A DNA stretch of 64,000 nt from an uncultured Acidobacteriaceae bacterium. GTDB lineage: Bacteria; Acidobacteriota; Terriglobia; Terriglobales; Acidobacteriaceae. The DNA lies in NCBI GenBank assembly GCA_963803095.1, contig CAWDLQ010000010.1:500890-564889 (forward strand). Reading direction: 5' to 3'. Positions within the stretch are counted from its first letter, which is position 1. The number at the start of each line of letters is the position of its first letter. A model generated the notes under the pieces. The model was not told the origin of the DNA. It saw only the letters and a list, made by a program, of their open reading frames with translations, and searched no databases. This document shows positions 3,938 to 58,574 of the stretch, piece after piece. The position numbers were made by a program, and so were the translations under genes.

Positions 3938-3954
3938 TTGCGAAACTGCTCTAA
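3933..3954. repeat. 22-bp exact direct copy of 262-283 (AGTAATTGCGAAACTGCTCTAA)
   Basis: Read directly. It spans the stop of ORF 3266..3937 (TAA at 3935-3937) and the stop of the convergent gene (3951-3953). Confidence 0.9.
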
Positions 3955-6200
3955 AACTTCAAGCGCAGGCCGGCCTGCATTCCGCTCGGAGTTCCGATGG
4001 CAGCGAAGCGCGCATAAGAAGACAGCATGGTAGCGCCGGACTCACCCAATTCAGAGATCGCCTTGGCGGTGGAGTAGTTGCGATGTTCCATCATGTCGGA
4101 TGTCTGCGCGATTAATTCCAACCGGGTTCGCCTTCCCAACTGAAAGCCCCTGATGAGCTGCGCATTGATATGAATGAAGTCCAATCCGGGAAGCTCATTG
4201 CGCCGGGTAAAGTCACCATAAGCGCCCAGAGTAAAACCGTGGGTGACGTCCTGCCATAAACCCGATCCTGCGCGGAACGGAGTGTGCAGCGTGCCGGAGA
4301 AAGCTATCCGCCGCATCTGATCCCCAACGAATGTATCGTACGTGGATCCCCCTCCGTCGGCGTAGGTATAAGCCACCCGGTAGTCTCCCCACTGCACCGG
4401 GTGCCCGGCCCATGCGGCCGTGAGACCGTCATAGGAAGACCTCGAGCCGGAATTATATTGGCGGATGCTGAAGAACTCGTTACCCGCGGCGCAGCCGGCA
4501 GCAGCTGCGCAGAGAGCGACGTCGCTGGACACGGGGAGAGCGAGTTCGACTCCGCGAATATGCTGGTAACTGGCCGATAAAGTGTTCCTGGATCCAAATT
4601 GCTGTTCAAACTCCAGGTTCGCCGTCTCCACATACGCATTCTGAATCGATGGATTCACCGTCGTGAAGCTGCCCAGGGCGCTCACCGGCAAGCTGTTGCG
4701 GCCAAGCACGAATGTTCCCGCGCGCAGCAGATTGACCGGACTAGCCGATCCCTCGGGAGCGCCCGCAATCGCCGGCAGCGGAAGCTGTTCATACAACATG
4801 CCGTATCCACCGCGAATCACTGTGCTCCTGGAACCTCCCGGAGACCAGGCAAACCCAACCTGGGGGGCGAGATTGTTGGTATCGGTGTGAACATTGCGAA
4901 GGAATTCGAGATCGTAGCGAATGCCCATCGTAAGCACCAGGTCTGAACTCATCTTCCACTGATTTTGCGCATAAAAGCCGGCGGCCCGTGAGGACTGGCT
5001 AAAGCTCGCGCTACCCAAGCTCGCTTCCAAAAACGACACGCTCATCTGGTTAAGAAGAAAATCTCCGCCGGCGCGAAGAGACTGGTTTCCGAACTGGCGA
5101 GACAGATTGTCTGCAGCCTCATACACCTTAAAGCGGCGCGCGGTCGGAAATCCGGAGGCGACTCCCCACGCGGGCTCCCCGCCCGGCACTTGCACCGTCC
5201 CTGCGATGAATTGTCCCCTGGTCTCATTCACCGTGCTGGGCGAAATGGCGATGGTGTTGTCAATGCTTGCGCTTTGCTGGGTTACCTTAAGCCCGCGGCC
5301 GCTAGCTAGCAGGCCGTCACCGGAGACGCTCGAACGGTTGTAACGAATGTTGGTTGTATCGCGTTCGCTGAAGCGATGATCGAGCCGCGCAAGAAACTGG
5401 CTGGAGGTGAGAGGCGTATGGGAGGAATCCACTACAAGTGGCGGTCCCTCCGCTACGATCCTCCCTCCCAAAGACTTCAAGAGCGAGGAGCTGGCAGGTA
5501 CACCCAGTCTCGGCCGGTCAAACCCCAGGAAGTAAGCATTTCGATTGTGGTTGGTGCTGCCACCCAACGCTGCTCCGTATTCTGTGGGCGCAAGCTTCGC
5601 CAGGTCCTGCACTGCGGCCAGTTCGGCCAAGTTATTCCCCGACAGGCCATAGAGATCTCCGTGCAGTAAGCCGAGCCCGCTGGGCGAGCGCCCAAGAGCC
5701 CGTGGAAGCCCATTGCTGATGATGCGGAATTCCTGGATCGTATCCGCTCCCGGCCATCGGTCTTCATGCTGACCAGGTGCATCGGGCAGTAACCCGGCCG
5801 CATGTTCGGCAGGAGCCTGAGGTGACACAAACACCCATTGACCCTTGGGCAACGTCGACAACTCATCGGTCGCCGCTAGCGCCATCGAAAGGCTGGCGCT
5901 ATCCCCGGCGCGAACGGTGACGGTCTTTGCTATGTCGTTGTAGTTCGCGTGGTGCACCGTTACTTCGTACTGCCCATCGGGGAGATGGGCGAAGCGAAAG
6001 TTTCCGCTTTGATCGCTGGTAACCGATTGCGATGTGAGTGTTTCACTCTCCAGCGCAGTGACCGTTGCTCCGGGTACAGCTGCGCCCGTGGAGTCACTGA
6101 CGCTTCCGTTGATGGTCGCATAGATGAGGGATCGCTGCGCTGGAAGGCTGGTTGCCGCAGCACAGAACGATAGAACAAAGGGTACAAGTCTCTTGAACAC
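3951..6200 (-). CDS. Carboxypeptidase-regulatory-like domain outer membrane protein (TonB-dependent receptor-like)
   Basis: 749 aa with a signal peptide and a CarboxypepD_reg-like N-terminus ('GSVSDSTGAAVPGATVTA...SGNFRFAHLPDGQYEVTV'). The remainder is long and beta-rich and ends in an aromatic residue ('GLRLKF'). Confidence 0.8.
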   Translation of the reverse strand: MFKRLVPFVLSFCAAATSLPAQRSLIYATINGSVSDSTGAAVPGATVTALESETLTSQSVTSDQSGNFRFAHLPDGQYEVTVHHANYNDIAKTVTVRAGDSASLSMALAATDELSTLPKGQWVFVSPQAPAEHAAGLLPDAPGQHEDRWPGADTIQEFRIISNGLPRALGRSPSGLGLLHGDLYGLSGNNLAELAAVQDLAKLAPTEYGAALGGSTNHNRNAYFLGFDRPRLGVPASSSLLKSLGGRIVAEGPPLVVDSSHTPLTSSQFLARLDHRFSERDTTNIRYNRSSVSGDGLLASGRGLKVTQQSASIDNTIAISPSTVNETRGQFIAGTVQVPGGEPAWGVASGFPTARRFKVYEAADNLSRQFGNQSLRAGGDFLLNQMSVSFLEASLGSASFSQSSRAAGFYAQNQWKMSSDLVLTMGIRYDLEFLRNVHTDTNNLAPQVGFAWSPGGSRSTVIRGGYGMLYEQLPLPAIAGAPEGSASPVNLLRAGTFVLGRNSLPVSALGSFTTVNPSIQNAYVETANLEFEQQFGSRNTLSASYQHIRGVELALPVSSDVALCAAAAGCAAGNEFFSIRQYNSGSRSSYDGLTAAWAGHPVQWGDYRVAYTYADGGGSTYDTFVGDQMRRIAFSGTLHTPFRAGSGLWQDVTHGFTLGAYGDFTRRNELPGLDFIHINAQLIRGFQLGRRTRLELIAQTSDMMEHRNYSTAKAISELGESGATMLSSYARFAAIGTPSGMQAGLRLKF

Positions 6201-7620: not shown

Positions 7621-10023
7621 CTAACGCGGTGTCCATTGCGGATGACTGGTGAACAGCCCTCCCAAAAAACCTAGCTGGTAGACGAGAAAGAATCCGAAGC
7701 AAACACTCACTACACCTGATGCAACACTGAAGACGCGGCTGATGCCGGTGAAGCGGCTGCCCGCATAGGCCAGCGGCAGCGCCATCACCGAAGTCATGCA
7801 CATCATGCCCACCATGGTGCCCGCGCCAAAGATCAACAGGTATACGGTCGCCCACACCGGACTGTGGATCGTAGACAGAACCAGCAACGCAACTGCGGCT
7901 GATCCGGCCAGGCCATGAACAATACCAATGACCAGCGGCCGCACACATTGATAGATGCCGAAGCGGCCAACGGTGCGGTCGAGCAGCGTCTCCGCTTTGC
8001 TGCTGATGGTTGCGGGTTTGCGGTTTCGAGTCAGACACGAAGTAATGCGCTGCATCACCCCGGTGAGATTCAGTACTCCCAGCAGGATCAGCATCAGCGC
8101 CACACTGAACTCCATGGAGAGCCCGAGACGCGGCGGGATCACCACCCCGAAGAGGATGATCATGCTTCCGACGGCAAAGATGGTCAGCGTGTGACCGAGT
8201 CCCCATATGGTGCCGATCAAGCTTGCCTGGCGAATACTCCTCTGCTTACTTACGATCGTAGAAACCGCCACCACATGGTCGGGGTCGGTGGAGTGGCGCA
8301 TTCCCAGCAACAGCCCCAGGCCACCCACAAAGAGAAAGGGGCCAAGCTTTTCTTTGCTCAGGTTGTGGACCCCAATGCCGGTGGTGAGAAAGGCGCGCAC
8401 TGCGATGCCGGCCCCAAGAACGGTCATGAACCCCGCGGAGGCTACCGGCAGCCAGCGCGTGGTCAGCGGCCCGTCCACTCGCAGACGAGTCATAAAGCGG
8501 CGCCCATACACCATGAGCATGCCGAAGGTGATCAGCACGGCAGCGAGGCCAAGACTAAACGCAATGATGAGGAAGAAGCCCAGACCGATGCGGTGCAGCG
8601 CGAAGGCGCTCAACAGTACCACCAGCGCCGCCGGGCACGGGATGATGCCGCCGGTAATCCCCAGGGCGAAAAGCTGGTACAGCGAAACGGTCTTGTGCGG
8701 CTCTACGGTTCCAACGGCAGGCTGTTTGCTGGACGAAAACCAGTGGCTATGGGACTGACCCGAAGTATGGGAGTGGTCCAGATCGAGACCGCTCCAGCGG
8801 CGGAGGAACATGTACCCACCAAGCCCGGCAATCGTCAGGCCGGAGAATACGCCCAGCCAGGGGTAGAGCTGCTCGGGCACGATGTATCGCGAGGCATACA
8901 GGGTGATGGCGCCAAGAGCAAACACTCCCGCTGTATGCGAGGCGGTCACGATGAGACCGAGGAGCATGGCATGTCGCGCCGTGCCCCGCGAGCCAACCAG
9001 GTAGGCCGCTACGATCGTCTTGCCGTGGCCAGGTTCAAGCGCGTGCAGCGCGCCCAGCCCGAACGCAATGAAGGCCGCCGTGATGAGGAACCATAGACTC
9101 AGGCTGCGGGTAGTGATCAGTTCGGTGAACGCGCTGCGCGGGGTTGCCTGCTGGTTGGCCTGCAAGTGCAAAGGCGCCACGGCGGGAGCCTGAGTGGGTG
9201 CGGGCGTAGGGCTACTGGAAGCATGGCCGGCTGGTTTTACGACTGGGACAACATGCCTTGCGTGCGAGGAAGCCACCGTGGCGGCAGCAGTTCGCGAAGG
9301 GGGCGCGATCGGATAACGAAACTGAATGGTTGCCGACAAATCCTGGGGCGGGCTGTTAAGCAGGTCGGTGGGATAGTTCCTGAGCCCTGCGCTGCGGTCG
9401 TCTTGCGGTACTGAGCTGCGGACGAAGTTCGCAGCTGGATTAGCAACGGCAACAATCTCTTTCCATCCCGCATGCCCGGGGTAGTTATTGTCGACAAACT
9501 CCAGACTGCCGGAAGCCGCAGCTACGCCTGCGCCCAGCACCCGACTCCCAATGGAAGCACCGCCCTCCCCTTTGTCATCCCGACCGGAGCGTAGCGCAGC
9601 GGAGGGATCTGCAGTTTTCTCAACCGCCGGATAAGCCGCCTGGTAGACAAAACCCATCTTCATCGTAGGCAAACCGCCAGCGCCCGGAGGAAAGATCACC
9701 TGGCTGGATAAAAGCCGCAGCGGCAAGCGCTTCCCATCGATGATCAGGCTAAGGCCGCGTCCCAATTCCACTCCCCGCGATGCAACATAGTGCGTGACCG
9801 CAGGGTCTGTCACATCGGCTGTGACATTGCCCTGCTGCAACTCCTGGTAGGTCGGGATCTCAGCCAGGTCGATGATGTACGAAACCCTGATGCCATCCTG
9901 CTCGAGCGAGATTTTCGAGTAGTGATTCACGCTGAAGTTGCCCATGGGATGAGCAAAGCTGCGCGGCCCAAGCAACAGGGCAGCGGTCATCAAAATAAAA
10001 AGGCAGAGTTGCTTACGGAACAT
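7621..10023 (-). CDS. Tripartite nickel/cobalt-transporter-like permease: exported N-terminal domain + RcnA/NicO-like module + NiCoT/UreH-like module
   Basis: 800 aa. The signal peptide has a predicted cleavage at SFA|HPMGNFSVNHY. The middle module has 'HALEPGHGKT' plus a His-rich loop 'DLDHSHTSGQSHSHW'. The C-terminal module has 'RHSTDPDHV' (NiCoT HX4DH signature) and multiple TM helices. Confidence 0.8.
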   Translation of the reverse strand: MFRKQLCLFILMTAALLLGPRSFAHPMGNFSVNHYSKISLEQDGIRVSYIIDLAEIPTYQELQQGNVTADVTDPAVTHYVASRGVELGRGLSLIIDGKRLPLRLLSSQVIFPPGAGGLPTMKMGFVYQAAYPAVEKTADPSAALRSGRDDKGEGGASIGSRVLGAGVAAASGSLEFVDNNYPGHAGWKEIVAVANPAANFVRSSVPQDDRSAGLRNYPTDLLNSPPQDLSATIQFRYPIAPPSRTAAATVASSHARHVVPVVKPAGHASSSPTPAPTQAPAVAPLHLQANQQATPRSAFTELITTRSLSLWFLITAAFIAFGLGALHALEPGHGKTIVAAYLVGSRGTARHAMLLGLIVTASHTAGVFALGAITLYASRYIVPEQLYPWLGVFSGLTIAGLGGYMFLRRWSGLDLDHSHTSGQSHSHWFSSSKQPAVGTVEPHKTVSLYQLFALGITGGIIPCPAALVVLLSAFALHRIGLGFFLIIAFSLGLAAVLITFGMLMVYGRRFMTRLRVDGPLTTRWLPVASAGFMTVLGAGIAVRAFLTTGIGVHNLSKEKLGPFLFVGGLGLLLGMRHSTDPDHVVAVSTIVSKQRSIRQASLIGTIWGLGHTLTIFAVGSMIILFGVVIPPRLGLSMEFSVALMLILLGVLNLTGVMQRITSCLTRNRKPATISSKAETLLDRTVGRFGIYQCVRPLVIGIVHGLAGSAAVALLVLSTIHSPVWATVYLLIFGAGTMVGMMCMTSVMALPLAYAGSRFTGISRVFSVASGVVSVCFGFFLVYQLGFLGGLFTSHPQWTPR
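9550..9616. repeat. Copy of the GTCATCCCGA...GAGGGATCTGCAG repeat family embedded in-frame inside the permease CDS
   Basis: 'AATGGAAGCACCGCCCTCCCCTTTGTCATCCCGACCGGAGCGTAGCGCAGCGGAGGGATCTGCAGTT' matches the intergenic copies at 48.5-48.9 kb and 56.3-56.4 kb. On the minus strand it is translated as '...ADPSAALRSGRDDKGEGGASIG...'. Confidence 0.8.
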
Positions 10024-11384
10024 GAGTCTGTCCTTGGCTCGCGGTAAGTCCAGCCTGGTCTTCGAGCACCTTCAGCTGTTGCCTGGCTGTGCCCGCATAA
10101 ATCACGTGAAACTGGGGGTTGATGCGGAGCGCCGTCTGCAGCCTCTCTTTAGCCTGGGTCATCTGGCCCAACCGGCTGGCAATCATGCCGGCGTGAAAAA
10201 ACAACAGAGCATCCCGGGCGCCGGGGTGCAGCGCATGGTCGATAGCATCACTCGCTTCCTGGTATTTGCCATTCTTGTATAAGGCCCACGCAAGTGCATC
10301 CCAGGTGTAAATATCGTGGCGAACTTCGAACTCCTTATGGGCCAGCACCAGCGATTCGTCCAGCTTGAGATCGTGATCCGCGTAAAAGAGCGCCAGATCG
10401 CGATTATGCAAAACCTGGTTGATATGACCCAGCAGCCCGATGTATTCGACCAGCTGATACTGCTTCCTGGCTTCCGCGAGGTTGCCGGCCTTGGTGTAGA
10501 TGTCTCCCAATTCCGCCACGTAAATGGGCATGGGCACGACAGCGATGGCGCTCTGGTAAAGCTTGATCGCTTCCGCGTAGCGCCCGTAGTTTCCGCGAAG
10601 CTTTCCCAGCCCGGCCAGAGCACGATAATCGCCAGGATGGATGTTGAGGGCGGCTACATAGGCTGTATCTGCGGAAGCGGAGTCACCAGCCTTCGTATAG
10701 TACTCTCCCAACTCGTAGTACAACCATGCAAGGTTTTCACTCGGAAGTTGAGCTTCGACTCCCTCCGTGACTGCTGTCTTCATGAGGTTGATCGCCCCGG
10801 CACTGTCACCGGCGATGAATTTGAGATAGGAGATCCTGCTGTCTCGCGCATACGCGGCGCGCGGAGAAAGCGTCATGTCACGAGGTGTCAATCGGCCGTA
10901 TGCGACGCCAGCTTTGTCATACTCGCCCATATCCGCGTAGGCGTCGCCGACGATGGCGAAAGACGAGATGTCGCCCGTTCCGAGTGACAGTGCTTTCTGC
11001 GCATAGGTGAGCGCGTCGGCAAACCGGTGCTCGCCCATGCAGACCTCCGCCATCGTTTCTAAGGCTGTGTCTGCTGAAAAGTCCGACTGAAACAAGATCG
11101 AGCGACTTGGTAAGGGATTGCTCGGCGAGTTGAAAGTCACTTACGTCGCCCGTCTCCCGGGCGCGCTGGAAATACGCGGCGCCCAAGCCCGCATATCCTG
11201 CGGCGTCATTCGGATTCCGAGCCACAGTAACCTGGGCGCTACGTATGAGGTGACCGGTGCCGGTCGGGTGAGGCGTGAGCAAAGCCTCCGGAACTGGTGC
11301 GAAGACCAGAGCAGCGGTCGTCGTTCCAACGCCGGCGGACGCCGCACTGTGATTCGGCTGATCCGAAGCGGTGCAAAGACTCAT
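10013..11384 (-). pseudogene. Tetratricopeptide repeat protein (paralogue 1), one apparent frameshift near 11.10 kb
   Basis: ORF 10013..11140 carries the TPR-rich C-terminal 375 aa. The N-terminal part ('...IRSAQVTVARNPNDAAGYAGLGAAYFQRARETGDVSDFQLAEQSLTKSL') lies in the frame of ORF 10917..11702. The start (ATG 11384) is uncertain. The stop overlaps the permease start by 11 nt. Confidence 0.65.
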
Positions 11385-11509
11385 GGGATACAGCGGCCTG
11401 CAACAGCGCCGGAACAGGTACGGTCTGAGGAACCTTCTGCGCGTGGTCATCCGCGACCGCCCCGAGACTTGCAGAGCTGAGAGCATCGGCAGCGTATTCA
11501 GACCCAGGG

Positions 11510-12755
11510 TTAGACTTGGATAGCAAGGTGGAAGTACTTGGTGGCGTCTGCACTGTGGTTCAGTTTCTGCGCGATGTGGCCCGCGTGATCGAAGATCTGG
11601 GCGCTTTGAATTCCAACCGCAAGGGCCCTCTGCACCGCGGCGTCCGCGTCCTGGAACTTCGCATTGGAGTAGAGAGCCCAGGCGTATGCATCCAGCGTCC
11701 ACACATCCTGCCGCGCTGCAATCTCCTGCTTCGCAAGTTTCAGCGCATCAGGCGCGGTGGCAGGGCTTCCGGCATACATCGAAATGAGGTCGAGTCTCGA
11801 CTCGTCGGATGCTCTTCCGGGTTCGCTTGCCAGCTTCTCGAACTCCGCATACGTGGCGCGAGCTCCTTGGACTGTCCTGCCGCCTTTTGCGCTCTTGCCA
11901 ACTCATAGAGAACGTGCGGATCGTTATCGATCGATGTAGCCTGCTTCCAAAGTTGCAGCGCATCATTCGCTCGATTCTGGCCCATGCGAACGCGCGCCAG
12001 ATTTTCAATCGTGTATGGATAGTGCGGAAAGAGTTGCTCGGCCTGTTCCAGAGTCTGCGCGGCGGCATCATTCTGTCCCGATTCGATCTTGAATCGACGC
12101 GATTTGGTTGGCGATCCACGCAAGGTCTTCCACCTCAGTCGGGGAGGTCTCCGAATATGCCAGGTTCAGAAAATCGATTGCGCCATGCGTATCACCGTAC
12201 AACGTCCGCAGCTTGGCTCCGATCAACGAGTCCCGGAATGTTGTTGGGCCGCATATTCAGCATCCACTGCGCATTTCTCTCTGCTTCTGGATAGTTGCCG
12301 AGCGCGATGTCTGCCTCAGCAAGATACCCGTAGGTCATCACATCGTCAGGCGTGCGGTGATTGAGCGCAGTAGCTCGTTCCCTCGCCTGCGCATATTCAT
12401 GTCTGCTCAACATCAGTGCTACCTGAGTTCTCTGCAACTGGAAGTTTGACGGGTCCAGGCCCAGGCCTTGAACAAGAGCGGCGTCTGCGTCCTTCAAGTA
12501 GCTGGGATCGGCGGTCTCGCGGGCCCGTGTCAGGAAAGCAATCGCCAACTCGTTATAGGCCTGAACCTTCTTCGGATCTGCCCTGAGTTGCTGCTTCGCT
12601 GACGCGATGCGCGACTGTGCGGGAGTGGCGCTCTGAATGGCAGCCGCGCTGGACACACCGGGCTGATCCGTCCCAGGCAGTACGGTTTGTTGGGCGAGCC
12701 CCGCAGTGGAGATGAGCGCAGTAAGAATACAAAATGTTGCGTAGGGAGATTTCAT
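11510..12755 (-). pseudogene. Tetratricopeptide repeat protein (paralogue 2) with a signal peptide, at least 2 apparent frameshifts
   Basis: Fragments 12192..12755 (signal peptide 'MKSPYATFCILTALISTAGLAQQ'), 11740..12123 and 11510..11779 read as one TPR protein. It parallels the paralogue downstream (e.g. 'AFLTRARETADPSYL' versus 'AYFQRARETGDVSDF'). Confidence 0.65.
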
Positions 12756-12850
12756 AAAGAACCTATTCGCGAGAGTTCCTGAGAATGGTCCTCGCGCGGA
12801 GATACATTCCGCGCGGAGGACCGGGTTAGTATCGAACGATCGTACGGCCG

Positions 12851-14480
12851 TTAGTCGACCGGACAGGGCGAAGGTCCACCCTGATTTGCTGGTGGCGCAT
12901 CCGAGTTCTGCATGCTGGAGGAGGTTGGCTGATCCCCGCAGCCCGTAGGATCGCCCGGGCTGATATGGCGGCTGTTTCGTCCACTGTATGCAAAGTGAAC
13001 ATACGGGAACGTCTCTTGCGGAGGAACGTCGGGAGCGTTGACGCCATCGCCGAGCAGGTTGTTCGGCGCAACATTGAAGCCGGGATTCAAAATGCCACCA
13101 ACGCCCACCCGCTCGACAATATCAACGACATCATCCGTGAGACGGCGTCCATTTGGGAATCCCGCAGGATCGCCGGCGATCAGACCCAGCCGCTTGCGCT
13201 GCGCCTTCGGAGTAGGAGGCACACCAGTGTTGAGCCGCATTAAGTCAGCAATCGGCCCGGCTGGAGTACCTTTCGGAGCTATCGGTGGGGCATACGTCAC
13301 CAGCGGCAGAAGATCGGTTCGCGGTGGAGTGGGGATGTTGAACCCGTACACGGCGTTGAACACTCTCGCAATGAGGGGATCAAGATCGAACGAAGCGAAC
13401 TGCATGTCTTTCACTGGCTCTGACATGCTCCAGAAGTCCTTGCTTCCTGTACCGATGATCAGTTCGTTGATCAGTGGATTGCCAAAGCGTTGTATCTGAG
13501 CCAGGCGGCCAAAGTTTTGGGCGGGGTTTGGGGATCTGCGAATGGTGATTTCTGTTCTGGAAGTTGTCGCCCAGGTGCCGATCGTTCCTTTCGGATCAGT
13601 GGCGGCGTGGAGGGCTCCGTCGCTGGTCAGAAGTTTAATCGGCACCTCGATCGCGATGGTGTTGACGTTGAATCCGGCAACCGAATTCGGCGCCGAATTG
13701 AGCTGGTCGTCAGCGTCCTGTTCAGGAGTTAGAGCTTCAACGCCGGTGCCGGCGCGGTAGTTGAGACTGTCAAAGGTTGCGCCCAGATCAATGAAGAAAG
13801 GATCTGCGGCTGTGCCTGCGAAAACGCGAATATTGGAAGCGCCATCCCGTCCTTGCAGGCCATAAATGCCCTGCGTCGCCAGGGCATCGTAATCCGGCAT
13901 AGTGCGCGGACCAACGTTGCTTGGTACAGCGATCAGCGGACTGCCGGTTGTGTTCGTCAAAGCGATGTCGCGATCGCCCTTGATCATGTTCACGGTAGAA
14001 CGTCTGCTGCAGGCTCAGGCCTGCAGCCCCGTCGCCGGTCAGAGAAGTGATCGCGGGGGGAACAATCGGCGTACCAGGTTTGATGGGCGCTGGCGAGTTT
14101 GCCGGCGCGTTAACTCCGTTGCCCGCTCCGGCGTAGCCCACTGGGAGCCCGGCATCGAGAATGTGAGTCTGGAAGCGGAACTGAAAGATGACATCTGCCC
14201 GCGCATCATGATCGTTGTCGATTTTGATCTGATACACAATCGATGGGTCGAACGGAAAATAGTTCGGCCCATTGCTGGGTTGAAGAAATGGGTCGACGTT
14301 CAGGATAAAGGTGACGCGATCTGGATGATCGTAGCTGACAAACGCATAGAAATCGGTGATATCAGCGGTGTGATCCAGTGCGGTGATTGGTGCTTCCCGA
14401 TGGCTCGATGCAAACACCCCGGGCGGCATAGCTATCAGCAGACTCAATGCGAGTCCGGCTGCGGACTTCAGTTTTGACAT
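12851..14480 (-). pseudogene. DUF4331 domain-containing exported protein, one apparent 1-nt frameshift near 13.99 kb
   Basis: Fragments 13788..14480 and 12851..13993. The N-terminus 'MSKLKSAAGLALSLLIAMPPGVFA|SSHREAPITALDHTADITDFYAF' is the hallmark start of DUF4331. The frames join at '...QQTF(T)VNMIKGDRDIAL'. Confidence 0.75.
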
Positions 14481-14743
14481 ACGGCTCTCCTTTAATAACT
14501 TTTCTCCGATTAGCGCAAGACTCGATCGGGCGGGTCGGGACTCGTAGAACGATTTGCACCGTCGGTACTGAAGTTACGCGCACGGGATCAAACTGGATGG
14601 CACCAGTTAATGTCTTTTGCCATGCCGTTGTTCCCGGGCGTTCATAAAACACAACCAATTGTTCATGGCACGGTGGGCGGGATTACGTTCATCGTCCCGT
14701 TACAATTGAGGGGTAGGCCGCCCGTTGCCCGCATAAGGAGAAC

Positions 14744-16879
14744 ATGAGGCCAGGAATTCATTACGTCATCACCGCTGCGGCCGGAGCGATCGCGCTGGCA
14801 TCGAGCGCCGCAGCCGCCGCTGCGGCCAGTGTGGGCTTCGGCCCCGGGAATCCGTTTTATGCGCCAAGCACCCTACCGTTTCAGGCTCCCCCTTTCGACA
14901 AGATTCAAGACAGCGACTACCAGCCGGCCATCGAAGCCGGCATGGCGCAACAGCTGACGGAAGTACGGGCGATCGCCGACAACCCCGATCAGCCAACGTT
15001 CGCGAACACCATCGTCGCGCTCGAGAAGAGCGGCCGCCTGCTGGATCGTGTGACGTCGGTCTTCGACGCGGTGACCAGTGCGAACACCGACCCCGATCTA
15101 CAAAAAGTGCAGCAGATCGAAGCTCCCAAACTGGCCGCGCACAACGACGCGATCTATCTGGATACCACGCTCTACCATCGCGTGGAAGCGCTCTATAACC
15201 AACGCGACGCGCTCAAGCTGGATGCCGAATCGTTGCGCCTGGTTGAGTACTATCACCGTGAGTTCGTGCATGCCGGGGCCAACCTCTCCGATGCCGACAA
15301 AACCGAACTCAAAAAGATGAATGAAGAGATATCGACTCTGGAGAACGATTTCAAGACCAAGCTGCTGGCCGCGACCCAGGCCGCTGCTTACTCTACACCG
15401 GACAAGGACAAGCTGGCGGGGTTGAGCGATGCTCAGTTAGCCGCGGCTGGGCAAGCTGCCAGGCAAAGAAAGCAGGAAGGCTGGGTGCTGCCTTTGCAGA
15501 ACACCACCCAGCAGCCCTCCCTTGCCGACCTGAGTGACCGCGCGACACGCCAGGAGTTGTTTGAGGACTCCTGGAATCGCGCCGAACGCGGGGGGCCGAA
15601 TGACACCCGCGCAACCATTTTGCGTTTAGCGCAGCTTCGTGCCAATAAAGCGAAGCTCCTCGGCTACCCGAATTTTGCCGCCTGGAAGCTGGAAGATCAA
15701 ATGGCCAAGACGCCGGAGGCAGCGATCCGGTTCATGGATGACCTGGTCCCGCCGGCCACGGCCAACGCAGCCGCCGAGGCCGGAGACATCCGGCACCTCA
15801 TGAAGGGCGAGGAATTGGAGCCGTGGGATTGGGACTACTACTCCAAGCAGGTGCGCAAGGCAAAGTTCGACATTGAAGATGCGCAGGTAAGGCCCTATTT
15901 CGAACTCAACAATGTACTCGAGAATGGTGTGTTCTATGCCGCCAACCAGCTCTACGGGCTAACCTTTAACGAGCGCAAGGACATTCCCGTTTATCACCCC
16001 GACGTGCGTGCCTTCGAGGTGATGGACGCGGATGGTAAGCCGTTGGCCCTGTTTTACTGCGACTACTTCAAGCGTGACAACAAGAATGGCGGGGCCTGGA
16101 TGAGCAACCTGGTCGGTCAGTCCAAGCTGCTGGGCACTCTTCCTGTGGTCTACAACGTGGGCAATTTCGCCAAACCCGCCGCAGGCCAACCGGCGCTCAT
16201 CAGCTTTTCCGATGCGACGACGATGTTTCATGAATTTGGTCATGCGCTGCACGGCATGTTCTCAGACGCGGAGTATCCGAGCCTCTCCGGCACCTCAGTT
16301 GCGCGCGACTTCGTCGAGTTCCCTTCCCAGTTCAACGAACACTGGGCCACCTATCCTGCGGTCTTCAATCACTATGCGCGGCATTATGAAACCGGCGCGC
16401 CTATGCCCGTCGCGTTGGCGGCCAAGCTGGTAAAGGCAAAAACGTTCAACCAGGGCTACGCGCTGACGGAAATCCTGGCCGCGGCGGAGCTTGATATGCA
16501 ATGGCACACTCTGCCCGCCGGAACCCACATCGAGAGCCCGGATGCATTTGAGAAGGAGGCGTTGACCAGGACGCATCTTTCCATCAGCTATGTGCCGCCG
16601 CGTTACCGCTCCAGTTACTTCTCCCACATCTTTTCCGGTGGTTATGCGGCAGGCTACTACGCGTATCTATGGAGCGAGATGCTCGATGACGATGCCTACC
16701 AGTGGTTCCTGGACCACGGCGGCCTCACGCGAGCCAACGGAGACCGTTTTCGCCGCATGGTCCTTTCGCGAGGCAACACCGAAGACCTGGCTGCGATGTA
16801 CAAGGCGTGGTTGGGAAGCGATCCCAGCATCAAACCGATGCTAAAGGAGCGCGGCCTGAAAGACCCCACAACCAATTGA
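14744..16879 (+). CDS. dcp: M3 family peptidyl-dipeptidase Dcp
   Basis: 711 aa with AAGGAG upstream and a signal-like N-terminus. It has the 'HEFGHALH' zinc motif, and the Dcp-like N-terminus reads 'NPFYAPSTLPFQAPPFDKIQDSDYQPAIEAGM'. Confidence 0.85.
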   Translation: MRPGIHYVITAAAGAIALASSAAAAAAASVGFGPGNPFYAPSTLPFQAPPFDKIQDSDYQPAIEAGMAQQLTEVRAIADNPDQPTFANTIVALEKSGRLLDRVTSVFDAVTSANTDPDLQKVQQIEAPKLAAHNDAIYLDTTLYHRVEALYNQRDALKLDAESLRLVEYYHREFVHAGANLSDADKTELKKMNEEISTLENDFKTKLLAATQAAAYSTPDKDKLAGLSDAQLAAAGQAARQRKQEGWVLPLQNTTQQPSLADLSDRATRQELFEDSWNRAERGGPNDTRATILRLAQLRANKAKLLGYPNFAAWKLEDQMAKTPEAAIRFMDDLVPPATANAAAEAGDIRHLMKGEELEPWDWDYYSKQVRKAKFDIEDAQVRPYFELNNVLENGVFYAANQLYGLTFNERKDIPVYHPDVRAFEVMDADGKPLALFYCDYFKRDNKNGGAWMSNLVGQSKLLGTLPVVYNVGNFAKPAAGQPALISFSDATTMFHEFGHALHGMFSDAEYPSLSGTSVARDFVEFPSQFNEHWATYPAVFNHYARHYETGAPMPVALAAKLVKAKTFNQGYALTEILAAAELDMQWHTLPAGTHIESPDAFEKEALTRTHLSISYVPPRYRSSYFSHIFSGGYAAGYYAYLWSEMLDDDAYQWFLDHGGLTRANGDRFRRMVLSRGNTEDLAAMYKAWLGSDPSIKPMLKERGLKDPTTN

Positions 16880-34359: not shown

Positions 34360-34650
34360 TCGGGATTCTTTGAAGAGGTACTTTAGAGCGGGAGGAGACA
34401 AACCATTGCGGCACTCCATGCGCCTTTCCTTAAAGAAAGGCGCACGCGCGGCTTTGTCCGGTGCAGCGTGGAAGGAAATCCGGGTCGGGATGACAAAGGG
34501 GAGGGCGGCGCTTTCCTAGAACAGTGGGCTAGTGGTTGAGCGCAATCCTGGACAGCCTTCAGCCGTCCCTGCGGGACTTAAACCATGCTTGGTGACGATC
34601 TCCAGGACTGTCGTCCTGGGCTGAGTTCAGCCGTCCCTACGGGACTAAGG
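34360..34650. repeat. Cluster of short palindromic repeat modules
   Basis: It contains '...GGAAGGAAATCCGGGTCGGGATGACAAAGGGGAGGGCGGCGCTTTCC' (the same families as at 48.8 and 56.2 kb). It also holds two copies of 'TTCAGCCGTCCCT.CGGGACT' (34556-34578 and 34624-34648). Confidence 0.75.
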
Positions 34651-37075: not shown

Positions 37076-40000
37076 TTAGAACGTGTACCTGGCGCCTAGC
37101 TCCAGTTCCCGCCCACCTCCATTTGCACTTCCCGGAAGTGCATTTGAGCCCGTGATTTGGCCCGCGTTGGACCCATTCACATATTTGGTTGGGTTGCCGA
37201 AGTTGGTGTGGTTGAGGGCGTTGAACGCGTCAAACCGGAATTGTAACTGGTGGTGTTCGTTGTAAGGCATCTTGAAACTCTTGCCGAGGGACATATCGAA
37301 TTGCTGGTAGCCCGGGCCGTATAACATGTTGCGACTCGTGCTTCCGAGGAAACCCGGGGCCGGCTCCGGGAAGGCCGCGAGATTCACCCATTGGCCGTGG
37401 CTTCCGGCCGTTTTGTGGGACTGGAAATAGCTCTGTCCGGCGACGTAATTCGGCCGGGTCGCCGGTGTGCCGCCGGAAATGGTATTGGTACTGGCATTGT
37501 TGTCGTTGTACCCCATGTTGAACGGTACGCCGGTCTGGAGGGTGCCGAGGACGCTGAGTTGCCAGCCGCCAATCACTGCATCCACGATCTTCGACGAAGG
37601 CGCGTACATCAAGCCCGGGCCAATGGGCAGGTTGTAAATGAGCGAGCCAACAACGCGATGCTTAACATCGAAGTCCGAAGGCCCGTATTCGCAGCTGATG
37701 CAGAGGTCGTTCTGCGGGAAGAGCTCCGACGACTGGGTGCGGATTCCGCTGGTATCGTCCAGCGATTTCGCATAGGTGTAGGAGCTGATCAGGTTGAAGC
37801 CGTTGCTGAAGCGCTTGTTCACCTGGAAGGTGAGGGCGTTGTAATTCGCGTTGCCCAGGTCGTGCACTAACTGAATCACGCCATTGTTCGGGTAGGGCGT
37901 ACGCTGCGAGATGCTCAAAGGCGAACCATTCGCATTGTAACCAGCGGCGCCGAGCAACCCGTACGGAACCGAATAATTGGCATTGCGAAAGCCATAGAGA
38001 TGATCGGTTTTCGAACCCAGGTATCCGGCCTGGAGCTGCCAGTTCTGGCCGAGCTGCTTCTGGACATCGAGCAGCCAGACCTCGCTGTACGTAGTTTTGT
38101 GCCTGTACGCATTGGCGTAAGTGTAGGGCGGCGGTATGTTGGCAGTGGAGCCGCTGGCCACAGCGTTGCCCCAGTTGATGGTATTCAGGCCGGGAGTCCC
38201 AGCCCCCGAGGTTGTCGTGACACGCCCGGCCAGGTTACGGGCCACATCGAAGCGGGCGTTGGCGGTGTCATTGTCGTAATACAAGCCAAAGCCCGAGCGG
38301 ATGACCCATGTACTGTTCGGCGTGTAGGCAATGCCCAAACGGGGCGCGAAGTTGTTGTATTGGGTCTGCATGAGCGAGTTAGGGAAATTGCCGTTGGCGC
38401 ACTGCGGCCCCGGATTGACGGGGGCGCCACTGGAGTTGACCCAGCGGATGTTAACTCCCTGATACGGGTCAGTGCAGGTGCCCTCGCGTCTAAAGAAGGG
38501 CCACAGGCTCTGCGGCTCCGGCCCGGAGACAAAGGGGCTAATGGGCGAGTTGTTGGTTTGCAAATCCACGATGAACTCATTGCCCAGGATGTCGTGCCAG
38601 GGCGGAGTCAGCTCATAGCGGAGGCCGGCTGACACGGTGAGTTTGGGCGAGAACTTATAGTTATCGTCGACGTAGGCGGCCTCGACGTTGCGCTTGTAAT
38701 CGGCCTGCGCGATCTGCACCGCATACACCGATGTGTAAAGCTGGCCGAGCAGGAAGTCTGCGAACGCGGAGCCGGTTCCCTTGACCAGTTTCCCAGGGGA
38801 GCTGGCCTCAGCGGTGGCGTTGGCCTGGAAGGTGAATGAGCCGCGGGAGAACTGGTTGCCCAGCTCATTAAAGGTCTGCCGTTCGTACGTGAAGCCGAAG
38901 TCGAAGGAATGCTTGCCATAGACCCAGGTGATGTTGTCGCTGATCGAGATATTGGGGTCTTTGGTCACATAGGGACCGTCGGTGCTGTCGCCAAGCGCTT
39001 GGAAGATATCCCCTGTAAAGCTTACCGAGGGAATACCCCAGGTTGCAGGAATCCCGGGTTGAAGGCCGGGAATCCCGACCTTGGACACGGCGTCATTGAC
39101 GCCCTGCGAGAACAGTCCGAGAGAATTATAGAAATTAGTCCAGCCAAACGCGGCCACGTTGACGATCGTGGGAGAGATGGTCCAGGTGTGGGAGCCCATG
39201 TACTGGTAGTAGCTGGTGATGATATTGCTGCCGGTTGTCCCGCCCGCCGTCTGGAATATCGCGGTGGGGTTCGTTTCCAGGCCATTGCTGAAGCGGAAGC
39301 CGAACTGCTGCTTCGATGACAAGTAGTAATCACCACGCACGTTGAAGCCGTCGTGAGTGTCCCTTACGGATTGGAGGAAGGTGTAATTGTTCTGAAACAG
39401 GTTGTTCTGAGCCGGGGCGTAGAACAACTGGATGAACTTCAGTGAGGTAGGATCGATGCGGCTCGCCGGAATGACGTTGCCCGGGAACTGTGTCCTGCCC
39501 GTGCCGTTGGGGTTCCCGGTGGCGGGATCGTAGATGGGAACGACGGATCCGTTTGCGGTTGTGGTGTACTGGCTGAAATTGCCGCCCAGGACGGCCTGCG
39601 TCGGCAGGGTGTACCCGGTATTCGAGAGACTGATTCGGGAATACCATTCGTCGTTGACCATAAAGAAGAAGCGGTTCTTGCCGTTGAAGACGTGGGGAAT
39701 CGAGATCGGTCCGGTGAGCACGAATCCGTAGTCGTTATATTTATAGGGGAACGCGGCGGGTTGAGGAGTGGGATAGAAATAGTTATACCCGAGAGCATCC
39801 GCGTAGTTGTTGCGAAGGAAGTAGAACCCGGCGCCGTGATAATTGTTGCTGCCGCTCTTGGTGACCACGTTGACCTGGGTCGCGTTATACCCGTATTGGG
39901 CGGGATAGACGCCGGTTTGCACCTTCAATTCCTGGATGGCGTCGATGGAGGGCTGGACCACATAGCTGTTGAAGTCGGGGTCGGAATTGTTGATGCCATC

Positions 40001-48479: not shown

Positions 48480-49080
48480 AGCCTGTGATTCGGGCGGCTG
48501 CTCGGCTGCGCTCGGGATGACAAAGGGGAGGGCGACGCTTCCATGGGGAGTGGTTGCTGGACAGAAGGCGTTTTTCATCACCTTGGGTGGGCGAAGGCCC
48601 ATGACTCTGTCGAAAAACATTTCCACGAAAGGTCCGCTGAACTGCAGATCCCTCGGCTGCGCTCGGGATGACAAAGGGGAGGGCGACGCTTCCATGGGGA
48701 GTAGTGGCTGAGCAGAAGGGAGCTGAGGTCCCTTTTTATCCCCAAGGTGATGAAAAACGCCTTCTGTCCACCAACCGCTCTCCATGGAAGCGTCGCCCTC
48801 TCCTTTGTCATCCCGAGCGTACCCGGATTTCCTGCCACGCTGCGCCGGACACGATCGCGTGTGCGCCTTTCAGTAAGGAAAGGCGCATGGAGTTCGCCAA
48901 CGCCACCAAGTTTTACAGGAAATCCGGGGCAGCCGAGGGATCTGCAGTTCAGCGGACCTCTCGTGGAAATGTTTTTCGGCAGACCGTAGCGGAGTAGAAA
49001 GGTCTGCGGTTTTCATTTTCAGGCCGTCCCTTTCGGACTTGACCCGGAGACAGTCCAGCCCCGGAACCCCTAAGCTCACC
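48480..49080. repeat. Dense mosaic of palindromic repeat modules (three GGGATGACAAAGGGGAGGGCGACGCTTCC-type copies, one carrying a nested ~112-bp element at 48819-48930)
   Basis: Direct comparison with 56.05-56.49 kb, 34.4-34.65 kb and 9.55 kb. All small ORFs here are repeat translations. Confidence 0.8.
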
Positions 49081-58428: not shown

Positions 58429-58574
58429 CGGGTGCCTCCCTGCAGTTGCAGGCTCTCTGCCCGAACTATACGCAAGGAGCGAAGCCAACCGCAACCGGCA
58501 AAACGGGTTAAGCGGCCTGCAGGCCCACAGATGTAAACTGGAAGGTATTGCCTTGCGTCTTACTAGGTAACGTT

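Follow-up and report, generated by a model that had tools for sequence, protein, structure and literature searches.

At positions 14480-7621 of the window (the whole 64,000-nt stretch of Acidobacteriaceae DNA analysed), co-directional genes on the minus strand run in the order DUF4331, TPR, permease, raising the question of whether they form a unit and what that unit would handle. The region is one copy of a widespread bacterial cassette, in a version that carries seven single-base frame errors. Features are listed in Table 1.

Gene content, linkage and distribution of the cassette

A sequence-only reading had described a four-gene operon including two exported TPR scaffolds. The TPR stop and the permease start share an 11-nt overlap (10013-10023), which is also found in the relatives L001 and L002. 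The cassette of the closest relatives, however, has three genes, namely DUF4331, one TPR protein of ~913 aa and the permease. Pfam TPR families match pieces of the TPR gene, and the signal peptide of its product is MKSPYATFCILTALISTAGLA, followed by QQ. The gene is a single fused ORF in L001 (912 aa) and also in L002/L013, L021, L024 and L042, and the stop that appears to separate two TPR genes (TAA, 11510-11512) is produced by one extra nucleotide near 11515. In more distant relatives the TPR part is indeed split into two genes, both with a signal peptide of their own, and signal peptides are present on the TPR partner proteins inspected in relatives. In this lineage the supposed pair of scaffolds is a single fused gene.

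Table 1. Positions of cassette features in the window
Feature	Position	Strand	Description
TTCAT-N16-TTCAT repeat	14641..14666	.	three ATGAAC copies on coding strand; window and L001 only
ECF-sigma-type promoter motif, ATCCAGTTTGATCCCGTGCGCGTA	14575..14598	-	-35 ccATCC, 16-nt spacer, -10 CGTAac
DUF4331 gene	12851..14480	-	~542 aa when corrected; Pfam PF14224
DUF4331 signal peptide, aa 1-24	14409-14480	-	predicted from sequence pattern
DUF4331 predicted mature N-terminus, S-S-H	14400-14408	-	conserved motif
TPR protein gene	10013..12755	-	two paralogous ~430-aa TPR units; N-terminal Sec signal peptide
Permease signal peptide, aa 1-24	9952..10023	-	ends ...PRSFA, before H; start codon in overlap with TPR stop
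Permease ectodomain, aa 25-243	9295..9951	-	beta-sandwich, 'anglerase-like' (AF2 model, Foldseek); predicted mature start HPMGNFSVNHY
In-frame ectodomain-loop insertion, ~102 nt	9514..9627 (approximate)	-	...TADPSAALRSGRDDKGEGGASIG...; copy of interspersed short repeat
NicO module A, aa ~301-555	8359..9123	-	RcnA-like six-helix; Pfam NicO 49.7 bits, DsbD_2 31.8 bits
NicO module B, aa 556-800	7624..8358	-	distant NiCoT-like; Pfam NicO 29.4 bits, cut-off 27.7

A family-specific HMM placed a dedicated signal-peptide-bearing TPR gene next in line behind DUF4331 in 63 of the 72 loci that could be evaluated, and in 2 further loci it is displaced. This linkage spans Acidobacteriota, Pseudomonadota, Chloroflexota, Actinomycetota, Binatia and others, and the synteny therefore extends well beyond close relatives. 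The third gene varies. Among 66 loci, 41 have a permease gene, which is of the NicO type in 24 and of the HupE_UreJ_2 type in 17; the remaining 25 have the DUF4331-TPR pair with no such permease nearby, suggesting that the pair can function without one. Conversely, a DUF4331-TPR pair is immediately upstream of all five ectodomain-NicO permeases that were looked up. Members of Anaerolineae, Pyrinomonadaceae and Thermomicrobiales are represented among those five proteins.

Where three frameshifts had been counted previously, seven window-specific single-base indels are present within coding sequence. In DUF4331 a single inserted nucleotide, placed at about 13996-13998 by comparison with L001 and L086, disrupts the frame, and the TPR gene has six 1-nt indels (12227, 12088, 11864, 11515, 11373 and 11084). 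L086, a second independent relative, confirms the three that its sequence covers. These are most likely assembly errors. There is perhaps one chance in five that they are real and that this genome holds the cassette as a pseudogene operon in decay. All seven are confined to ~2.9 kb of DUF4331 and TPR sequence between intact permease and M3 peptidase genes, none is in a homopolymer run, and the public record for this genome includes a truncated product of 349 aa with 100% identity. However, removal of the indels leaves no in-frame stops, and dN/dS against L001 is 0.09 for DUF4331 and 0.18 for the TPR gene, akin to the 0.14 of the intact permease gene. Intact 542-aa DUF4331 homologues with 96-97% identity also exist. 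L001 has a similarly dense cluster of single-base indels in its M3 peptidase gene, and L002 and many related loci are from long-read 'MFD' MAG assemblies, a pattern consistent with local consensus errors.

Exported proteins and permease modules

Two pieces of the DUF4331 protein match PF14224 with scores of 252 and 108.8 bits. The cleavage motif noted earlier, VFA/SSHREAP (slash marks the predicted site), is present, and an A-x-A/S-S-H-R-E-A-P-type N-terminal motif was found, with positional variants, in 66/66 sequences. Counting back from the His, -1 is S or N and -2 is S or A; A occupies -3 in 57 sequences and G in 6, -4 varies, and -5 is A, V, L, T, S or G. R-E-A-P follows the His. Variants such as ANA/ANH and LLA/SNH argue against cleavage immediately before the His, though the sites in both DUF4331 and the permease ectodomain are predictions from sequence patterns alone. 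The motif predicts that the S-S-H end would bind Cu(II)/Ni(II) as an ATCUN-type site. Apart from His31, DUF4331 has no conserved His, no conserved Cys was found in the alignment, and many Asp, Asn and Arg residues outside the N-terminal motif are invariant (e.g. FPNGRRxxDDVxD). The structure model is confident overall with moderate pLDDT around H-R-E-A-P, which, together with the strict conservation of H-R-E-A-P, suggests that the His may belong to the fold rather than to a floppy ATCUN arm. Comparison of the model with the PDB found no structural relative, and a literature search for 'DUF4331' and 'PF14224' gave no match. No published experiment was found on DUF4331, the cassette TPR family or ectodomain-NicO proteins.

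The permease is intact (800 aa) and matched twice by Pfam NicO. Its SFA/HPMGNF site is present as previously read; across 72 homologues A24 is ≥90% conserved and H25 is invariant, as are P26, G28, F30, D52, A54, E55, I56, W187, Y217 and D220 of the ectodomain. The predicted mature N-terminus is His on the ectodomain of every NicO-type permease inspected and of most HupE_UreJ_2-type permeases, which start A/HKPSDSYL, A/HEIGKTQV or similar. The ectodomain has no match in Pfam or NCBIfam, but is modelled by AF2 with pLDDT >90 across most of aa 30-240, and the top PDB match of the model in Foldseek is Cu-bound Ang-1 [PDB 9GCE] (probability 1.00, E 7.7e-3), with moderate similarity (TM 0.43, rmsd 8.5 Å). 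Support at the level of sequence is weak: alignment with the ectodomains of HupE_UreJ_2 partners by hhalign gave 35% probability (E 4e-4), and profile searches with the NicO-type and HupE_UreJ_2-type ectodomains did not recover 9GCE. The ectodomain-loop insertion (Table 1) is not in L001, DNA resembling it also occurs at 48505-48949, 56134-56431 and 34483-34513, and pLDDT falls below 50 in a section of the modelled loop (aa 152-164).

RbAng-1a binds Cu2+ (Kd 74 nM) and Ni2+ (220 nM) in vitro via a mono-histidine brace, and the captured metal has been proposed to feed a fused permease (Franco Cairo et al. 2025, PMC12537917). The proposed link to metal handling is strengthened by the match of the modelled ectodomain to this Cu-bound domain. 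Ang-1 genes often adjoin DUF4198, which encodes a secreted Ni-binding protein (PMC12537917); DUF4331 would be the analogous soluble partner here.

All of the permease motifs reported earlier are present. Module A includes HALEPGHGKT, THT, PCP and the His-rich loop DHSHTSGQSHSHW, which comes after helix three, has a predicted cytoplasmic location and in many homologues is much longer. H327, H333, H351, H363, H427 and C463 are invariant in 72 homologues. The NCBIfam nickel/cobalt efflux transporter family PRK10019 matches module A with 118 bits (cut-off 195). Module B includes RHSTDPDHV (HX4DH) and GLGHTLT and has no NCBIfam match. Fusion is limited to Acidobacteriaceae, Pyrinomonadaceae and Blastocatellia-type proteins; L010, L059 and L074 encode the module as a gene of its own, which in L010 weakly matches NicT and TIGR00802, and elsewhere it is missing. 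The description as an RcnA/NiCoT-type fusion is apt as to HX4DH and the RcnA-like features, but both modules score below the curated cut-offs of those families and were rejected as bona fide members. Likewise, the 'tripartite' form exists here but is a lineage-specific fusion, and the conserved core is the ectodomain plus module A.

A conserved ECF-type promoter motif

No sigma-70-like promoter was found in 14481-14743. The ECF-type motif precedes the DUF4331 ATG by ~95-118 nt. Its conserved form, ATCC-N16-CGTA, is present upstream of the cassette in 15/16 relatives, where shuffled sequences gave an expectation of 0.5, and with strict spacing in 27/74 loci across phyla. In L086 the sole match is ~100 nt upstream of DUF4331. 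It agrees with the published RpoE/ChrR-type ECF consensus, TGATCC-N16-CGTA. In ~19/82 loci an ECF sigma gene is no more than ~3 kb from the cluster, with anti-sigma partners that are ChrR-like or RskA-like, and the motif also precedes 6 of 18 cassette-adjacent ECF genes. None was found within the window; L086, whose DUF4331 is 96% identical, has genes for an ECF sigma factor and a Cupin_7 protein ~4 kb upstream. A promoter of the RpoE/ChrR (or RskA-partnered) type suggests induction by oxidative or envelope/metal stress rather than by a classical metalloregulator. The TTCAT-N16-TTCAT repeat that had been read as a possible operator exists but is kept only in L001. L002 and 13 further relatives lack it, and it was rejected as part of the conserved system.

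Possible roles in metal trafficking

From the gene content, conserved linkage and N-termini, fold match, promoter motif and neighbouring ECF/anti-sigma genes, we infer the metal binding, metal identity, relay, direction and TPR role set out here. The explanation given slightly better than even chances is that the three components form an envelope module under ECF-sigma control that traffics a transition metal, with Cu(II) or Ni(II) the likeliest candidates. Transcription would start at the ATCC-N16-CGTA promoter. Sec-exported DUF4331 would capture metal in the periplasm, its S-S-H N-terminus serving as ATCUN-type site, and the periplasmic TPR protein, which in this lineage consists of two fused paralogous units, may bridge or chaperone DUF4331 and the permease, aiding relay of the metal to His1 of the ectodomain. 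The ectodomain would then swing across the opening of the NicO module to let the metal pass through the inner membrane. Import is considered the more likely direction, but the likeness of module A to the exporter RcnA and the predicted cytoplasmic His-rich loop fit efflux at least as well. RpoE/ChrR-type regulons respond to oxidative stress and not metal starvation, which also counts against this explanation.

It is unlikely, though not negligibly so, that the cassette serves efflux or detoxification, the RcnA-like module ridding the cytoplasm of surplus Ni/Co (or Cu) while the His1 ectodomain, DUF4331 and TPR protein take it over and sequester it in the periplasm, so that Cu(II)/Ni(II) stays redox-silent under stress. 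An ATCUN site binds Cu(II) tightly and as a redox-inert sink, which would suit this role, as would the exporter-like, often expanded loop, the stress-type promoter and anti-sigma factors, and PRK10019 as best curated match of module A. However, that match is below its cut-off, module B bears the NiCoT importer signature, and the same slot can hold HupE_UreJ_2, whose HupE/UreJ relatives are importers; the Ang-HupE/UreJ-2 architecture was likewise taken as uptake (PMC12537917). More doubtful is that DUF4331 is a metalloenzyme or redox protein of an oxidative-stress ECF regulon, supplied with cytoplasmic metal by the permease via its ectodomain and assembled with TPR as chaperone. Antioxidant enzymes of the periplasm, for instance PgpD of Shewanella, do belong to RpoE/ChrR-type regulons, and DUF4331, which is large (~520 aa), confidently folded and rich in invariant residues, exceeds the needs of a simple metal carrier and is found with TPR but no permease in over a third of loci (25/66). 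Yet no catalytic motif was found in DUF4331, its lack of structural relatives and of conserved Cys and its single conserved His are unhelpful to an enzyme, and the published ectodomain relatives have weak oxidase activity only and were interpreted as metal carriers (PMC12537917).

A role unrelated to metals, with DUF4331 and TPR as envelope, structural or other-substrate proteins and NicO/HupE_UreJ_2 domains carrying another substrate, is improbable. The NicO region also matches DsbD_2, some homologues are named 'sulfite exporter TauE/SafE family protein' by NCBI, and cassette neighbourhoods are not enriched in metalloregulator, riboswitch or metal-enzyme genes. Against this, NicO and HupE_UreJ_2 are unrelated permease families sharing one genomic slot and both come from Ni/Co transporter superfamilies, an N-terminal His or X-X-His is conserved across all three exported parts, the ectodomain matches a Cu-bound domain, and the invariant His/Cys motifs and His-rich loop are conserved in the permease. 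The cassette is read as a variant of the anglerase-permease metal system that adds two partner proteins not described before and in which Cu or Ni is probably caught outside the cytoplasm and handed to a transporter that has its own metal-catching domain.

Gene content and reading frames of the cassette

The sequence-only reading had described four genes, and the DUF4331, TPR and permease assignments were borne out; however, the loci of the closest relatives, L001 (permease 90% identical to that of the window) and L002/L013 (80%), carry three genes, which encode a DUF4331 protein of 542 or 516 aa, a single TPR protein of 912 or 708 aa, and the permease. The apparent stop separating 'TPR1' from 'TPR2' in the window is created by an insertion at about 11515. 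Because more distant relatives keep the two TPR proteins as distinct genes, both of them with a signal peptide, the fused TPR form is, judged from these sequences, a lineage feature. The 11-nt overlap between the TPR stop and the permease start that had been pointed out earlier is present in the window and is the same in L001 and L002.

The two DUF4331 pieces match PF14224 over profile positions 126-419 (252 bits) and 1-84 (108.8 bits), both above the gathering score of 27 bits. A continuous DUF4331 ORF of about 450-600 aa is absent from the window, the gene being split by a 1-nt insertion at about 13996-13998. A truncated 349-aa database product is 100% identical to the window DUF4331, and intact 542-aa homologues are known at 96-97% identity.

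Three frameshifts had been claimed for the cassette, but DNA alignment with L001 gives seven single-base coding indels in the window, and the three that are covered by L086 (an independent relative on a JGI contig, 92% nucleotide identity) were confirmed there. With the indels removed, the number of in-frame stops is 0, and dN/dS against L001 is 0.09 for DUF4331, 0.18 for TPR and 0.14 for the intact permease. In L001, about nine single-base indels break the M3 peptidase gene (L001:18-2162, the counterpart of window 14744-16879) into three ORFs; the window has this gene intact (711 aa). Dense indel clusters hit different genes in different assemblies, which indicates assembly artefacts, and long-read 'MFD' MAG assemblies are the source of L002 and many related loci. 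Because of the lack of stops after correction, the low dN/dS, the intact homologues, the indel cluster in the L001 peptidase gene and the long-read MAGs, the window frameshifts are probably local consensus errors. Single-base indel clusters in long-read MAGs can give intact operons the look of pseudogenes.

At L086:11957-14350, the TPR and permease genes share only about 70% nucleotide identity with the window, whereas DUF4331 shares 92% (nucleotide; 96% identity), and the permease is called as two genes (319 and 476 aa). As TPR and permease are far more divergent than DUF4331 and the permease is in two genes, this pattern suggests either that the cassette has recombined internally or that ectodomain and transporter are truly separate in L086.

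Features of the DUF4331 cassette and other elements in the window
Feature	Position	Strand or context	Basis or detail
DUF4331 gene, split into two ORF pieces	within 14480-7621	minus	Pfam PF14224
TPR region, several ORF pieces	12755-10013	minus	Pfam
Permease gene, 800 aa, intact	10023-7621	minus	ORF
DUF4331 indel	about 13998	minus-strand gene	insertion, 1 nt, vs L001
TPR gene insertions, five	12227, 12088, 11515, 11373, 11084	minus-strand gene	1 nt each, vs L001
TPR gene deletion, one	11864	minus-strand gene	1 nt, vs L001
Candidate ECF-type promoter, ccATCC-N16-CGTAac	14575-14598	upstream of DUF4331	motif search
Interspersed short repeat, in-frame in ectodomain loop	9514-9627	minus-strand gene	peptide ...TADPSAALRSGRDDKGEGGASIG...
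Other copies of the interspersed repeat	48505-48949, 56134-56431, 34483-34513		similar DNA
Outer-membrane proteins, CarboxypepD_reg / TonB-dependent-receptor type	3951-6200, 37076-40591, 40985-44434	minus	749, 1171, 1149 aa

Linkage across phyla and the DUF4331 N-terminus

An exhaustive search for DUF4331 gave 2,684 cluster representatives, and the family comprises about 2,700 clusters at 50% identity. Loci from species-representative genomes (80 in all) were fetched with an alignment of 58 diverse DUF4331 proteins, and represent Acidobacteriota, Pseudomonadota, Chloroflexota, Actinomycetota, Binatia, Ignavibacteriales, Planctomycetota and others; the Pseudomonadota carriers include Thiobacillus, Methylomonas, Methylobacter, Nitrosomonas, Accumulibacter and Competibacter. 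A lack of synteny outside close relatives had been named as a point that would tell against the system, and the linkage was found to span many phyla. A TPR partner lies directly 3' of DUF4331 in 63 of the 72 loci evaluable with a TPR-family-specific HMM, and is displaced in two more. The TPR partner proteins inspected have signal peptides, and by eye most contain an R-E-[ST]-[AG]-D motif.

The third gene is more variable. It is of the type with an ectodomain linked to NicO in 24/66 loci and HupE_UreJ_2 (PF13795) in 17/66, with E about 1e-45 in the two proteins scanned with Pfam. The remaining 25/66 loci have no such third gene and DUF4331-TPR is followed by unrelated genes, including those for a PEP-CTERM protein, an amidase, TonB-type outer-membrane proteins, a phosphodiesterase and a histidine kinase. 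In the reverse direction, DUF4331-TPR was found immediately upstream of all five ectodomain-NicO proteins looked up, three of which are from Anaerolineae, Pyrinomonadaceae and Thermomicrobiales; permeases of this type have thousands of homologues.

One of the large outer-membrane protein genes of the window is two genes downstream of the permease. An outer-membrane component may, from gene order, sometimes be associated with the cassette, because similar genes adjoin DUF4331-TPR in three other loci (L032, L065 and L086).

The DUF4331 protein of the window has ...GVFA|SSHREAP at its predicted cleavage site. The same pattern, with [SA]-S-H-R-E-A-P after the signal peptide, recurs in 66/66 representatives having an N-terminus and predicts an X-X-His mature N-terminus. 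Counted back from the His over these 66 sequences, S or N occurs at -1, S or A at -2, and mostly A at -3 (57 sequences, against 6 with G), while -4 varies and -5 may be A, V, L, T, S or G. Read from the alignment, this pattern is of the classical -3/-1 signal-peptidase type with the cut predicted two residues before the His, and variants such as ANA|ANH and LLA|SNH tell against a cut immediately before the His.

ATCUN, as found in serum albumin, is an amino-terminal motif for high-affinity, square-planar binding of Cu(II)/Ni(II). It requires that the amine of the mature N-terminus be free, that the second residue not be Pro and that the third be His. The S-S-H of the window protein resembles it in the predicted X-X-His start with non-Pro at position 2, and fits the sequence rule if the cut follows A-x-A, the site favoured by the conserved -3/-1 pattern. 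This His is the only conserved His in the 58-sequence alignment, which includes no conserved Cys. Unlike the albumin motif, however, the DUF4331 His is trailed by R-E-A-P; because these residues are equally invariant and partly ordered in the model, the His may be embedded in the fold and have a structural role. The model itself (pLDDT 88, pTM 0.88) found no structural relative in the PDB with Foldseek (best TM about 0.15), and neither the single query nor the 58-sequence profile gave a meaningful match to PDB sequences. The terms 'DUF4331' and 'PF14224' yield nothing in the searchable literature.

Permease architecture

The window permease is made up of a signal peptide, a region of ~275 aa that includes the ectodomain and a linker, and two NicO modules, A and B. 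The ~275-aa region has no Pfam or NCBIfam match. The His placed by the sequence-only reading at the predicted mature start (SFA|HPMGNF) proved to be a constant feature, as H25 is invariant and A24 at least 90% conserved among 72 homologues from several phyla, which share the motif A|H-P-[ML]-G-N-F. The HupE_UreJ_2 partners start with A|HKPSDSYL, A|HEIGKTQV and similar sequences, and a His1 ectodomain is found on nearly all of them (17 related loci).

An AF2 model of the permease has a pLDDT of 77.9, with most of the ectodomain >90. The best PDB match of the ectodomain model in Foldseek is 9GCE (probability 1.00, E 7.7e-3, TM 0.43, rmsd 8.5 A), the Cu-bound Ang-1 domain of the anglerase RbAng-1a. 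No sequence match to 9GCE was obtained with the whole window permease or with either ectodomain profile, nor did these queries match any other PDB sequence meaningfully. The NicO-linked and HupE-linked ectodomains align with each other in register in hhalign, weakly (35% probability, E 4e-4).

Anglerases are metal-binding His1 domains fused to a permease; RbAng-1a binds Cu2+ with a Kd of 74 nM and Ni2+ with 220 nM (Franco Cairo et al. 2025, Nat Commun; PMC12537917). Binding is by a mono-histidine brace, published only for RbAng-1a and MmAng-2a, and the domains have been proposed to fish metal ions for the fused permease (PMC12537917). The window permease shares with Ang-1 and Ang-2 a signal peptide followed at once by an invariant His, and its modelled non-cytoplasmic domain may correspond to their immunoglobulin-like beta-sandwich, with helices between strands 2 and 3 and a linker to a multi-helix metal permease. 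A conserved acidic residue about 28-31 residues past His1 of the window ectodomain further resembles Ang-2 (His1/Asp33). In contrast to both, the window ectodomain starts with H-P-[ML]-G-N-F and has no detectable sequence similarity to 9GCE, and the membrane part is NicO (PF03824) twice, RcnA-like and NiCoT-like, instead of HupE/UreJ-2 (PF13795). The permease would be a variant of the anglerase architecture in which the ectodomain is carried on NicO rather than on HupE/UreJ-2.

Ang-1 genes often adjoin a gene for DUF4198, a secreted Ni-binding protein that is also found in Ni/Co ABC transporter operons (PMC12537917). A soluble exported partner beside an anglerase-permease is the role that would, by analogy, fall to DUF4331. 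However, DUF4331 is unrelated to DUF4198 in family and fold, and DUF4198 uses His1 and His18 rather than X-X-His and has no TPR partner. NicO, TPR partners, ATCUN and an ECF promoter go unmentioned in the anglerase paper, whose sole reference to DUF4331 is a count of 2 in a supplementary table of neighbouring genes (PMC12537917).

An EF-hand-like loop, D-x-D-x-D-G-x-(I/V)-x-x-x-E, links strands 2 and 3 in many ectodomains of both the NicO and the HupE_UreJ_2 type, where its position coincides (alignments A5 and A6), and this loop produces weak matches to calcium-binding proteins. It has been lost in the Acidobacteriaceae clade of the window (QQGNVTADVTDPAV). An ectodomain loop of the window permease contains an in-frame copy of an interspersed short repeat, and similar peptides ('GPSTALRSGRDDK / LSSRPERSAVEGPAV') occur in other homologues at varying positions in the ectodomain or linker. 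Because of these varying positions, the mobile repeat appears, from the sequences compared, to have been tolerated repeatedly inside the permease coding region. Another copy (34483-34513) lies about 90 nt upstream of an Acido-Lenti-1 RNA (RF01687) at 34601-34646 on the plus strand, which scored 49.4 bits in Rfam (gathering score 37; E 3.9e-8).

Module A matches Pfam NicO with 49.7 bits, and its best curated match is NCBIfam PRK10019 (E 4e-34), though below the cut-off of 195 bits (118 for module A alone, 104.6 for the whole protein). The RcnA-like features reported earlier, HALEPGHGKT and the His-rich loop DHSHTSGQSHSHW, are present; HAL-x-PGHGK and the loop recur in homologues from different phyla, many of which have a much longer loop. 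Module A resembles RcnA, the E. coli Ni/Co efflux pump, in its six-helix NicO module, HAL-x-PGHGK and central His-rich loop. The window permease differs from RcnA in its predicted cleaved signal peptide, its ~275-aa periplasmic region and its fused second module, and such permeases are preceded by DUF4331-TPR (5/5 looked up) rather than paired with rcnR/rcnB.

Module B, of about 245 aa, scores 29.4 bits against Pfam NicO, just above the gathering score, and that of the window has no TIGR00802 or NicT match; a separate module B homologue in the related locus L010 reached 22.5 and 23.1 bits against the respective cut-offs of 333 and 450. The HX4DH signature already noted is present as RHSTDPDHV in the second modelled helix (H581-591) and is followed by GLGHT, which resembles the GHSSVV box of NiCoT transporters (HoxN/NixA/NicT; TC 2.A.52; TIGR00802). 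However, hydropathy peaks and the model suggest about 6-7 helices, fewer than the eight of NiCoT, and module B is optional, most homologous cassettes lacking it. The tripartite permease of the sequence-only reading holds for Acidobacteriaceae, Pyrinomonadaceae and Blastocatellia-type proteins, where module B is fused; in L010, L059 and L074 module B has an adjoining gene of its own, and elsewhere it is missing.

Candidate ECF promoter and proposed role

The TTCAT-N16-TTCAT operator proposed for the upstream region is conserved only in L001 and was not upheld. A different motif, ATCC-N16-CGTA, is found 95-160 nt upstream of the start codon in 15/16 relatives, against 0.5 expected by chance, and with strict spacing in 27/74 loci across phyla; in L086, the only match is just upstream of DUF4331. 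The passages on RpoE/ChrR regulons in two sources (PMC5507510, PMC4336711) give the ECF promoter consensus of this type as TGATCC-N16-CGTA, and DUF4331 cassettes do not figure in those passages. The window motif agrees with this consensus at 4/6 positions of the -35 and 4/4 of the -10 element, with exact spacing. The candidate promoter, ATCC-N16-CGTA(A/C), resembles those of the R. sphaeroides RpoE, Shewanella RpoE2 and P. syringae PSPTO_1043 regulons and has their spacing, and ECF sigma genes adjoining the cassette come with a ChrR-like (zf-HC2 and Cupin_7) anti-sigma in Pseudomonadota and L086. The differences are that Acidobacteria have CAATCC or CCATCC at -35 where the consensus has TGATCC, and that Acidobacteriota and Chloroflexota encode an RskA-like anti-sigma beside the sigma gene.

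An ECF sigma gene is encoded no more than about 3 kb from the cassette in about 19/82 loci, and the same motif is present 5' of 6/18 cassette-adjacent ECF sigma genes. ECF sigma (6 members) is also the sole recurring domain in a Pfam scan of 109 upstream neighbours, which gave no metal-enzyme or metalloregulator signal. In L086, an ECF sigma gene and a Cupin_7 protein gene are about 4 kb upstream. No ECF sigma or ChrR homologues were found within the 64-kb window. The intergenic region upstream of DUF4331 contains no sigma-70 promoter, and terminator matches are at chance level. A riboswitch or leader RNA was rejected, as Rfam is empty upstream (whole window at gathering threshold; 14300-14900 at E ≤ 5).

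The window contains three ATCC-N16-CGTA matches, not significantly more than the 1.1 expected. One (43026-43049) falls inside a large outer-membrane protein gene. Another (58603-58626, minus strand) is intergenic, just upstream of a 156-aa ORF (58024-58494) that is bactofilin-like by eye, and may mark either a further member of this ECF regulon or a chance match. In two Methylomonas loci (L022:9131-9850 and L023:9131-9850), a gene for a DVUA0089-family (NCBIfam FDP_fam) protein with a weak PEP-CTERM family match lies directly upstream of DUF4331, has its own ATCC-N16-CGTA and is divergent from an ECF sigma / ChrR-like pair. On this arrangement, the regulon in Pseudomonadota may extend to this gene as well.

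The best-supported interpretation is that the cassette is an ECF-controlled envelope metal-trafficking module, in which DUF4331, with its putative ATCUN site, and its TPR partner would act with the anglerase-type permease. By analogy, the metal would most likely be Cu(II) or Ni(II), because ATCUN and mono-histidine-brace chemistry fit both, while the transporter superfamilies point to Ni/Co. Import is somewhat favoured as the direction of transport, because the alternative permease family, HupE/UreJ, consists of importers, module B bears the signature of NiCoT importers and the published anglerase model is one of uptake. Efflux or sequestration remains a serious rival to import, given the likeness of module A to RcnA and the stress-type candidate promoter. 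Alternatively, DUF4331 could itself be a stress-defence protein that receives its metal through the permease.

Stated in full, metal trafficking by the cassette would be a relay from DUF4331, a periplasmic ATCUN protein whose fold lacks solved relatives, and a dedicated TPR adaptor to anglerase-type NicO or HupE_UreJ_2 permeases, constituting an unrecognised, phylum-spanning system for Cu/Ni acquisition or sequestration under ChrR- or RskA-partnered ECF control; this is put forward tentatively, as possible rather than probable. As far as the searchable literature shows, the DUF4331-TPR partnership, the conserved, predicted ATCUN-type N-terminus on a fold lacking solved relatives and the candidate ECF promoter are undescribed. 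Literature searches for HupE/UreJ with TPR returned nothing, and those for methanotroph, copper and HupE nothing relevant.

Current names for such permeases, 'RcnA', 'nickel/cobalt exporter' and 'sulfite exporter TauE/SafE', are unsupported. If the model holds, the 2025 'anglerase' idea reaches beyond HupE/UreJ-2 into the NicO/RcnA superfamily, and the uncharacterised DUF4331 and its TPR partner gain a role and a testable metal site. The carriers belong to dominant soil phyla and to Cu- or Ni-dependent guilds (Methylomonas, Methylobacter, Nitrosomonas, Accumulibacter). If true, an ECF-sigma route for the control of trace metals would be identified, and the relay would link oxidative or envelope stress signalling with trace-metal handling in Acidobacteriota, Chloroflexota, Actinomycetota, methanotrophs and nitrifiers.
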